Below are positions 3,013 to 8,440 of a DNA stretch of 9,228 bases, one piece after another; positions within the stretch are counted from its first letter, which is position 1; each line of letters begins with the position of its first letter. The notes under the pieces were generated by a model, which saw nothing but the letters and a program-made list of their open reading frames with translations, made no database searches and had not been told where the DNA came from. The position numbers were made by a program, and so were the translations under genes. Origin of the DNA: a virus (lineage: Duplodnaviria; Heunggongvirae; Uroviricota; Caudoviricetes); the IMG/VR virus record IMGVR_UViG_2526164665_000028. One strand, written 5' to 3'.

Positions 3013-3273
3013 ATGAATAGTATTTCCGTTTCCACCCCGGCACCAGCTGCTCCGGTGCTCCCGGTTCCGGCTCAGCAGGAGCGCTTCATACGATTACCTG
3101 AAGTGATGCACCTTTGCGGGCTATCCCGTTCAACCATCTACGACCTTATCAGCCGCGATGCCTTCCCGCAGCAGATATCCCTGGGTGGAAAAAATGTGGC
3201 CTGGGTACAGTCGGAGGTCAGTGCATGGATGGCGGCGCGAATTGCTGCCCGCGAGCAAGGAGGCCATGCGTGA
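3013..3273 (+). CDS. alpA: AlpA/Vis-family phage transcriptional regulator (excisionase-like HTH)
   Basis: 86 aa; AGAGG 7 nt upstream of ATG. Product ...[49 protein letters not shown]... is the AlpA/Vis helix-turn-helix signature. Confidence 0.85.
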
Positions 3274-3308
3274 AACTTGCTTTGCAGTCTCATCTTCTTT
3301 TTTCTGGC

Positions 3309-3338
3309 TTGCGTCCTGATATCTTTTCCAGGTATAGT
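3309..3338 (+). promoter_or_regulatory. Candidate sigma70 promoter (PLE-like) for the immunity leader
   Basis: TTGCGT (3309-3314), 18-bp spacer, TATAGT (3333-3338), about 30 bp upstream of the first antisense-RNA target site. Confidence 0.3.
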
Positions 3339-3367
3339 TTTCCCGCTGCCGCAAAATCGGCTGCCGG

Positions 3368-3395
3368 GCGTAGGAACCCGAGTTACTTATTGGCG
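3368..3395 (+). promoter_or_regulatory. seqA-like bipartite target for the CI-like antisense RNA
   Basis: Half-sites GTAGGAAC (3370-3377) and CTTATTGG (3386-3393), complementary to TTCCTAC (3545-3551) and CCAATAAG (3529-3536) on the same strand. Confidence 0.5.
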
Positions 3396-3400
3396 ACACC

Positions 3401-3423
3401 AGACGCGCCGTGCGTCTTTTTTT
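3401..3423 (+). terminator. Intrinsic terminator-like hairpin in the immunity leader
   Basis: AGACGC-GCCGT-GCGTCT perfect 6-bp stem followed by TTTTTT. Confidence 0.5.
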
Positions 3424-3487
3424 ACGTCGTTGCTCAGGCACACCCATTTTTCGGGCTGCGGTGCTTATACCTTAGCCCCTTTCAGAT

Positions 3488-3572
3488 AATGGTGGTCCGG
3501 GCGGGGCAGCCTTCGGGCTGGCCGGTTTCCAATAAGGCCGGTATTCCTACCCCCGTTCGGGTCACCACCCAT
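3488..3572 (+). ncRNA. CI / C4-type antisense immunity RNA (boundaries approximate)
   Basis: GGTGGT (3491-3496) pairs with ACCACC (3564-3569) as a terminal stem; internal UUCG-closed hairpin CAGCC-TTCG-GGCTG (3507-3520); exposed region 3526-3552 carries the two blocks complementary to the upstream and downstream targets. The only ORF here (3571-3813, alternative frame) is likely spurious. Confidence 0.5.
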
Positions 3573-3574
3573 GA

Positions 3575-3618
3575 GCGTAGGAACTCCGGTGGTGGCATTT
3601 ACCGCTACTTATTGGAGG
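3575..3618 (+). promoter_or_regulatory. seqC-like second antisense target overlapping the RBS of the next ORF
   Basis: GTAGGAAC (3577-3584) and ACTTATTGG (3607-3615) repeat the seqA-like half-sites; the second abuts and overlaps the GGAGG SD (3614-3618) of the ORF starting at 3627. Confidence 0.5.
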
Positions 3619-3626
3619 TTGCCCTT

Positions 3627-3818
3627 ATGGCTACGATCCTCGCCCCGTCACATCCTCAATTTATATTTGTTTTTGCCGCCGTTCGTCGTGCAGAACGTAA
3701 ACCACGTATCAGTATGCTGCGTATCATCGCCAGCAATGAGCATCATGCACGTCTTTCACTGGTCCATGAGTATGTGCTTTGTCTTGCTGCTCGCCTGCCT
3801 GTCCGGGAGGTGATCTAA
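3627..3818 (+). CDS. Small protein, kil-like by position (first translated gene downstream of the immunity RNA)
   Basis: 63 aa; GGAGG 8 nt upstream of ATG 3627; stop TAA overlaps the next ATG (TAATG). The long overlapping ORF 3114-3818 is an artifact except for this 3' part. Confidence 0.45.
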
Positions 3819-4042
3819 TGAATCACGCCGCAATCTCTTATGACGATATTCTCCGCCTGAAGCATCTTCGTAACGTGGGAGAGTTTGTCACTGGAATGGC
3901 TGTTCTTCAGGATTGCTACGAAAAACCTGCCAGTGCTCAATGTGAACAACTGGTTTCCCTGATTTATCTGATGACAGAGCAGCTTGATGGCGTGGTACAG
4001 CGTTGCCAGGATGACCTCATGAACATGGAGGTGGTGCAATGA
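3818..4042 (+). CDS. Small hypothetical protein of the satellite left operon (epsilon/derepression-protein position)
   Basis: 74 aa from ATG 3818 with GGGAGG 7 nt upstream (the ORF call from 3779 lacks an RBS); stop overlaps the next start (ATGA at 4039-4042). Confidence 0.6.
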
Positions 4043-7615: not shown

Positions 7616-8440
7616 ATGATAAAGCCATTTTCTGTGAGGTATGGTCATGTTGACGTTAGAGAGCATGTCCAGCTGAATGATCTTAATTCTGATACACGCA
7701 TGGCATTGTGGAATTGCTTATATCTTTTCCTTTGGACTAACAATCGTCAAACTGCTACAGCAACAAAATGTGCGCAGTCTGTGTGGATATATTATCTAAA
7801 TCAACCTGCGGATAATATTCCTCGTTATGAAAGTGGATACAAAAGTGATAAGACGTTGCTGACTGCTATCCGAGATTATATATATGGGGAAGCATGGTAT
7901 TTGGTATATGATTTAATTGAGTTCATCATTGAGAGAACTAATTCATATATTAATCTATCGAAGCATCTCAATTCCATCTTTAAAAAGCATGGCGTTGGTT
8001 ATACCATAATAAATGGTTGTATTACTCCTATTTCAAATGATAACGAAATTGAAAGTGTTCAGAACGCAGTTGATAATGGCACTGATTCATCGCGTAGCCA
8101 TTTCGAAAGGGCGTTACAACTAATGACGGATAGAGAGCAGCCAGACTACAGAAACTCGATTAAAGAGTCTATCTCTGCAATTGAATCTTTATGCAGGAAA
8201 ATCACGGGCAATGATAAAGGAACCTTGGGGGCTTGTCTTAAAGCTATAGAGGAAAAAGGATATATACACTCTGCAATGAAAGGCGCTTTTAGTCAGCTCT
8301 ATGGTTATACAAGTGATCAGGGTGGAATACGTCATGCGCTAACAGAAGAAGATGTAAATCCTACCTTAGCTGAAGCTAAATTTATGTTAGTCACTTGCAG
8401 TGCGTTCAGTAATTATCTGTTGTCAAAAATAAGTGATTAA
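7616..8440 (+). CDS. Hypothetical protein, tentatively AbiJ-like abortive-infection protein (HEPN/Abi_C-like C-terminal region)
   Basis: 274 aa; GGGGAAG upstream of ATG 7616; stop TAA at 8438-8440. Strongly AT-biased codons. N-terminus MIKPFSVRYGHV...ALWN and C-terminal ...YGYTSDQGGIRHALTEED... recall AbiJ-N/Abi_C proteins, but this is from memory of motif patterns only. Confidence 0.55.
   Translation: MIKPFSVRYGHVDVREHVQLNDLNSDTRMALWNCLYLFLWTNNRQTATATKCAQSVWIYYLNQPADNIPRYESGYKSDKTLLTAIRDYIYGEAWYLVYDLIEFIIERTNSYINLSKHLNSIFKKHGVGYTIINGCITPISNDNEIESVQNAVDNGTDSSRSHFERALQLMTDREQPDYRNSIKESISAIESLCRKITGNDKGTLGACLKAIEEKGYIHSAMKGAFSQLYGYTSDQGGIRHALTEEDVNPTLAEAKFMLVTCSAFSNYLLSKISD

Follow-up and report, generated by a model that had tools for sequence, protein, structure and literature searches.

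The region between positions 3309 and 3818 of the DNA analysed here raises the question of what it encodes. In this 9,228 nt caudoviral stretch (IMGVR_UViG_2526164665_000028, hereafter the window), two short sequences occur twice on the plus strand and their reverse complements lie in between, at a place where RefSeq shows a single protein coding gene. Such a region may represent an antisense RNA immunity circuit as known from phages P4 and P1, a protein gene with repeats as by-products, or both at the same time.

We first consider the element in which the region resides. The window is found with 100% identity in the chromosome of E. coli O26:H11 str. 11368 (L001, NC_013361.1 5528224-5540804) and in many other strains, and related sequence is present in 1181 of 5426 complete E. 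coli genomes. Annotation together with Pfam matches (Psu, Ogr_Delta, Phage_AlpA and primase domains) yields the gene order Ogr/Delta, Psu, Sid-like, AlpA, RNA region, DUF5375 and alpha primase-helicase. All members of the P4-like core set (psu, delta, sid, alpA, alpha) are present and the P4 order is kept. Judged from gene content and order, the window is part of a P4-like satellite prophage. An integrase was seen neither in the window nor in the annotated flanks of the O26:H11 locus. The O26:H11 element may be a decayed satellite or remnant, in which case the circuit described below would only be left silencing kil and alpha. Downstream of alpha an AbiJ-like gene of 274 aa is found (7616-8440, plus strand; AbiJ N-terminal domain 4, 95.5 bits), which by its domain and position is probably anti-phage cargo of the satellite. 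On its ogr/delta side the O26:H11 element borders an IS66-family element; on the other side, past the AbiJ-like gene, come IS600 and a truncated pseudogene. A TGT-N12-ACA dyad (TGTGTCAGTGACTGAACA, 2171-2188) is located upstream of the sid-like gene, which starts near 2098 on the minus strand, and resembles the binding site of Ogr/Delta-type late activators. This reading is weak, since five TGT-N12-ACA matches are observed in the window and 2.5 are expected.

The whole window was scanned with Rfam at gathering thresholds and exactly two families were found, C4 and isrK. These are the Rfam names for the CI RNA and seqA of P4, respectively (PMC3632133; PMC4825925; PMC10111431). A covariance-model search for the C4/CI family and RNA folding of the middle segment had been suggested along with the original prediction of a P4 CI/P1 C4-type circuit, and both turned out in its favour. 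The C4 match (RF01695) covers the full model (1-87) at 3485-3572 on the plus strand with 83.4 bits at a gathering threshold of 45 (E = 9.6e-16). The minimum-free-energy fold of this antisense RNA gene (-47.2 kcal/mol, z = -3.25) agrees with the Rfam C4 model. It consists of a 17-bp closing stem around a GC hairpin, a second hairpin and a single-stranded linker. The predicted GGTGGT/ACCACC closing stem is present in the fold as well as in the Rfam C4 alignment. Module b' (CCAATAAG, 3529-3536) sits in the loop of the second hairpin, and module a' (TTCCTAC) in the single-stranded linker ahead of the 3' arm of the closing stem. Hence both reverse complements are in the middle segment as claimed, only that TTCCTAC is located at 3544-3550 and not at 3545-3551. 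The combined pattern CCAATAAG-N7-TTCCTAC occurs a single time on the plus strand (3529-3550), while dinucleotide-preserving shuffles expect 0.00 occurrences.

For comparison we sampled 80 loci encoding alpha relatives, one genome per species. In 74 of them, alpha is preceded on its own strand by a CI homologue, and these 74 loci (Enterobacterales) were aligned. The internal structure of CI is 96.8% paired in the alignment, with compensatory changes in hairpin 1 and in the closing stem.

The second Rfam match is a seqA/IsrK-type leader RNA. The isrK model (RF01394), the equivalent of P4 seqA, matches at 3345-3422 on the plus strand with 72.1 bits at a gathering threshold of 50. The leader starts with a hairpin, followed by a second hairpin with a1 in its loop, a single-stranded b1 and an intrinsic terminator. 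The terminator scan locates the latter as a stem at 3401-3417 followed by a U run, and it is nearly invariant in the 74 loci. The idea that b1 could act as an anti-terminator against this structure was dropped, because the fold of the free leader already keeps the terminator intact.

Upstream of the leader a candidate promoter is located at 3309-3338 (plus strand), with a -35 box TTGCGT (3309-3314), an 18-nt spacer and a -10 box TATAGT (3333-3338). The annotated -10 box of P4 (X02534) falls on this TATAGT, by alignment as well as by the offset between two P4 loci. Moreover, CTGGCTTGC and TATAGT/TACAGT are conserved in the promoter region among the loci. A sigma-70 consensus scan of 3200-3900 called no promoter; it missed the candidate because the -35 box matches the consensus at only three of six positions. 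Based on the P4 alignment and the conservation, 3309-3338 is a putative constitutive promoter like PLE of P4.

The targets of the antisense RNA are found on both sides of it. Upstream, seqA (3370-3393, plus strand) is made up of a1 (GTAGGAA, 3370-3376) and b1 (CTTATTGG, 3386-3393). Downstream, seqC (3577-3618, plus strand) contains a2 (GTAGGAA, 3577-3583) and b2 (CTTATTGG, 3608-3615). GTAGGAA(C) and CTTATTGG are thereby each present upstream and downstream of the CI RNA. The pattern GTAGGAAC...CTTATTGG occurs exactly twice on the plus strand, at 3370-3393 and 3577-3615, precisely where the half-site pair had been predicted. Chance repeats were rejected as an explanation, as the dinucleotide-preserving shuffles expect such half-site patterns 0.00 times. 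The b2 module overlaps a Shine-Dalgarno sequence GGAGG (3614-3618), which is followed after 8 nt by the ATG (3627) of a small gene, and the pairing of b2 with CI can be extended over GGAGG by one U-A and two U-G pairs.

This small gene (3627-3818, plus strand) encodes a kil/icd-like product of 63 aa (NCBIfam phage_ICD_like, 70.4 bits), which corresponds in alignment to Kil, the last 65 aa of P4 Eta. It would be the first gene to be translated off a PLE-like transcript. In the 74 loci, both its start codon and GGAG are conserved. The gene is nested, in frame, at the 3' end of a larger Eta-like ORF of 182 aa (GTG 3270 to TAA 3818, plus strand), which also holds the promoter and both RNA genes. 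The Eta-like ORF is 53% identical to P4 Eta over the full length (E = 4e-57). It corresponds to the RefSeq CDS WP_000761643.1 ('Icd-like', 182 aa), which spans 3270-3818, and RefSeq has no RNA genes there. Directly upstream lies the alpA/vis-like gene (3013-3273, plus strand; Pfam Phage_AlpA, 71.8 bits), equivalent to P4 orf88 by its position. At GTGA (3270-3273), the end of this gene (TGA) overlaps the beginning of the Eta-like ORF (GTG). An even longer open reading frame (3114-3818) crosses the RNA region, too. The claim of an ORF-poor segment at 3488-3572 therefore did not hold: the longer ORF passes through it, as does the RefSeq CDS, whose frame is conserved. Counting back from the kil ATG, 66 of the 74 loci have no stop codon in the kil frame for 333 nt or more, as compared to 0 and 8 loci for the other two frames. 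We rejected the view that the RefSeq CDS merely has an over-extended start, given the open frame in these 66 loci and the homology to P4 Eta. Conserved frame and homology make the RefSeq CDS defensible, though it hides two RNA genes.

Seven of the eight loci with another open frame, six from Pectobacterium and one from Dickeya, have a 1-nt deletion just before the kil ATG (L061, L062, L065, L066, L067, L069 and L072). The deletion moves their upstream Eta-like ORF out of the kil frame and into that other one, where it is open for ~360 nt. Translation of the RNA region is seemingly kept in these loci even with the in-frame nesting lost.

The same nested organization is described for P4. There, the constitutive promoter, seqA and CI all lie within eta. 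Translation of eta occurs only on transcripts of a late promoter further upstream, is coupled to that of the alpA homologue, and prevents termination (PMC10111431). Kil is the short form translated off the PLE transcript (PMC10111431).

Whether the half-sites are selected as base pairing partners can be seen from their variation. They vary widely among the 74 loci, but always in step at seqA, CI and seqC. Of 1095 alignment cells in the seqA-CI duplex, 99.5% are paired, and 12 of the 15 pairs of this duplex are changed on both sides (304 double-change cells). When the partners were shifted by 1-3 columns as a slid control, pairing dropped to 36-49%. The CI-seqC duplex is 95.9% paired, with 100% in the a helix and 99-100% in the eight b-core pairs; here 12 pairs have both sides changed (309 double-change cells).

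Pairing is moreover specific to the own targets. CI pairs with its own seqA at 15 of 15 positions in 71 of the 74 loci, and likewise with its own seqC, whereas non-self combinations of CI and target reach a mean of 10.2 out of 15. Predicted duplex energies point in the same direction. For the CI of the window they sum up to -44.6 kcal/mol with its own targets vs -20.4 kcal/mol with those of P4, and for the CI of P4 to -48.6 kcal/mol with its own vs -19.6 kcal/mol with those of the window. The covariation, the difference between self and non-self pairing and the duplex energies thus strongly argue for selection on the pairings and for the half-sites as determinants of specificity. Hence the claim that the half-sites define immunity specificity gains strong evidence from the covariation at three sites, as far as sequence comparison can tell. 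The further claim that they are specific to this element had to be given up. The same a+b combination is found in eight other loci from other genera (Enterobacter, Cedecea, Serratia, Dryocola, Superficieibacter, Edwardsiella, Ewingella and Kluyvera), and each half-site singly is even commoner among the loci than the pair.

In total, 32 specificity types (combinations of a and b) are present in the 74 loci. On the a side 7 alleles were counted; on the b side there are 15 eight-base variants, which amount to about a dozen alleles, a few of the variants being a single base away from another. Eight b alleles are found together with one and the same a allele, and six a alleles with one and the same b allele. 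Every allele change is mirrored in three separated copies. The recognition code of P4-like satellites could, as a tentative and rather doubtful reading, be modular and reassorting. Due to the order a1-b1...b'-a'...a2-b2, one module can be swapped only by two or more separate exchanges. This points either to patchy recombination, occurring often between co-resident satellites, or to copy-correction between the three sites, and selection for escape from the immunity of a resident satellite suggests itself as the driver of either process.

One locus in the alignment shows a mismatch of its own. In L057 (L057:41-336), unlike in all other loci, seqA (GTAGGAA/CTCAATGG) and CI (GTGGAAA/TCTAACGG) do not fit together; this seqA fits the CI of L055 (L055:41-342) instead. 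Both loci are from Mangrovibacter yixingensis SaN21-3. They both begin at contig ends with a common, identical 119-nt prefix, which makes an assembly artefact as likely a source of this mismatch as recombination between co-resident satellites.

The transcript may also adopt other structures before processing. In the CI closing stem, the 3' arm (3561-3569) can pair with 3588-3596, a downstream copy of the 5' arm, and the resulting hairpin (3561-3596, plus strand) puts a2 in its loop. It is 98.5% paired in the 74 loci with three compensatory pairs, and it is also predicted by RNAalifold. The 5' arm (3490-3501) can in turn pair with 3433-3445 on the leader side according to RNAalifold. With outside partners for both arms, the models suggest an alternative fold of the unprocessed transcript, which is perhaps tied to processing or to showing a2 in a loop. 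A further hairpin (3455-3463/3468-3476) lies in the spacer that separates CI from the terminator of the leader. Its pairing is kept in the 74 loci despite numerous double changes; three of the pairs, for instance, have them in 38, 26 and 26 sequences.

Compared to P4, the window shows the same two Rfam matches (C4 and isrK) in identical order, and all parts are present in the same order and spacing, including the nested eta/kil frame. The flanks are the same, with alpA/orf88 upstream and DUF5375 and alpha downstream. Sequence identity is 74.6% by blastn and ~80% by alignment columns over 3270-3660. P4 has 45 extra bases between terminator and CI. The recognition sequences in contrast differ in all three copies (GTAGGAA/CTTATTGG in the window, GTGAGAA/TTCACAGG in P4). 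Together with the duplex energies given above, this predicts heteroimmunity between the two elements. Another difference is found after kil, where P4 has epsilon. The epsilon position is occupied in the window by a 74-aa ORF (3818-4042, plus strand) whose ATG overlaps the kil stop (TAATG). It has no similarity to P4 epsilon and no Pfam or NCBIfam match, so that the downstream outputs would be partly unlike those of P4.

Related segments are also found outside of satellites. A segment of phiKO2 is 80% identical to 3331-3594 of the window (leader and CI), and N15-like Klebsiella phages (phiKO2 and relatives) have a segment of 76-80% identity to leader and CI (~3331-3597). The anti-immunity small RNA of N15/phiKO2 differs in its host, a linear plasmid-prophage instead of a satellite. 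Many Stx1/Stx2-converting phages have a segment 69% identical to CI, seqC and the start of kil (3474-3656), and most of those records leave it without annotation.

Other readings of the region have to be weighed against a P4-type switch. C4 of P1/P7 shares with the window the family RF01695, the two-module a/b recognition in the layout a1b1 / b'a' / a2b2 and a target over the ribosome-binding site of an Icd-like first gene. In P1/P7 the antirepressor gene ant lies downstream of icd (c4-icd-ant operon). If the window worked this way, its C4 RNA would block translation of icd, thereby keep a downstream ant off and protect a protein repressor. However, no antirepressor gene was found downstream of the kil/icd-like gene, where the ORFs are the 74-aa ORF, the DUF5375 gene and the alpha primase-helicase, and the neighbourhood is that of P4. 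In contrast to icd-ant of P1/P7, the operon of the window is a satellite replication operon. We thus consider a P1/P7-type circuit extremely unlikely. Of the P4 CI/P1 C4 architecture originally proposed, the P4 side stands (alpA, eta/kil, primase operon) and the P1 side does not, because no antirepressor gene follows. Equally hard to believe is that the region is nothing but the 5' part of the annotated 182-aa 'Icd-like' gene, with repeats and stems as by-products of coding. The single RefSeq CDS, the frame open in 66 of 74 loci and the 53% identity to P4 Eta fit such a view. On the other hand, two covariance models match far over threshold, and the double changes in 304 and 309 cells preserve base pairs at three separated sites. 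Such changes would not be expected from coding constraint, and they contradict protein coding as the exclusive explanation. Moreover, P4 has the same ORF and the same RNAs together (PMC10111431), so that both are layers of one system.

The Salmonella IsrK locus offers a further view. Here, too, an isrK-type leader with terminator is followed by a C4-like RNA (STnc1160) and a small ORF, as in the window. The isrK-orf45-anrP-isrJ locus in Gifsy-1 controls the anti-repressor-like AnrP and the Q-like antiterminator AntQ, and IsrK, which has short and long isoforms, is reported to be an activator (PMC4825925). Transferred to the window, the leader (3345-3422) would be the main regulator and the C4-like RNA secondary: acting in trans, the leader would open the ribosome-binding site of the downstream small ORF on the read-through mRNA and switch expression on. 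The isrK match of the leader (72.1 bits), the activation of downstream translation by the short isoform in Salmonella (PMC4825925) and the near invariance of the terminator which produces the short form in the 74 loci are consistent with this. Nevertheless, a1/b1 covary with the loop and linker of CI and not with the kil leader. The synteny is that of P4, whereas the Salmonella isrK locus resides in the Gifsy-1 prophage and not in a P4-like satellite. In addition, the Salmonella authors themselves describe IsrK as structurally homologous to P4 seqA and suggest that a CI-like RNA is at work in Salmonella as well (PMC4825925). Activation by the leader is for these reasons improbable.

We conclude that the region is very probably a P4-type antisense RNA immunity switch, which is expected to operate as in phage P4. 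The family membership of both RNAs, their anatomy, the three-way covariation and the conserved eta frame are observed here. For processing, Rho-dependent termination, the immunity phenotype and the late-promoter bypass we rely on the P4 and P1 literature. Transcription would start at the constitutive promoter inside the eta-like ORF and produce a leader with seqA and the intrinsic terminator. Most transcripts would end there as a short IsrK-like RNA of ~78 nt. Read-through transcripts would include the CI/C4 RNA (3485-3572), which would be excised as a stable small RNA. P4 CI is a stable RNA of ~80 nt whose processing involves RNase P and PNPase. On nascent transcripts with the same specificity, the b' loop (CCAAUAAG) and the a' linker (UUCCUAC) of CI would pair with both targets, seqA and seqC. 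Once seqC is paired, the kil/icd-like gene (63 aa) would have its ribosome-binding site hidden, the RNA left untranslated would be terminated early, and the DUF5375 gene and the alpha primase-helicase would stay off. This shut-off would act on the resident element as well as on any newcomer of the same type. Transcripts that start at a late promoter further upstream would escape control, since on these the whole eta would be translated, coupled to alpA. The short seqA/IsrK-like RNA might in addition act in trans, e.g. as a sponge titrating CI.

The switch of the window is therewith an ordinary member of a known, already well described family with recognition sequences of its own, and brings no new mechanism. 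Mildly new is only how diverse the modular alleles are, with 7 for a, about a dozen for b and 32 combinations in the 74 loci. For the annotation, the protein-only reading of RefSeq is to be corrected, as the 182-aa ORF embeds two regulatory RNAs and their targets. For the biology of P4-like satellites, the half-sites provide a simple sequence key predicting which of them exclude each other. This bears on the competition between satellites and on the spread of the defence genes they carry, here the AbiJ-like gene.
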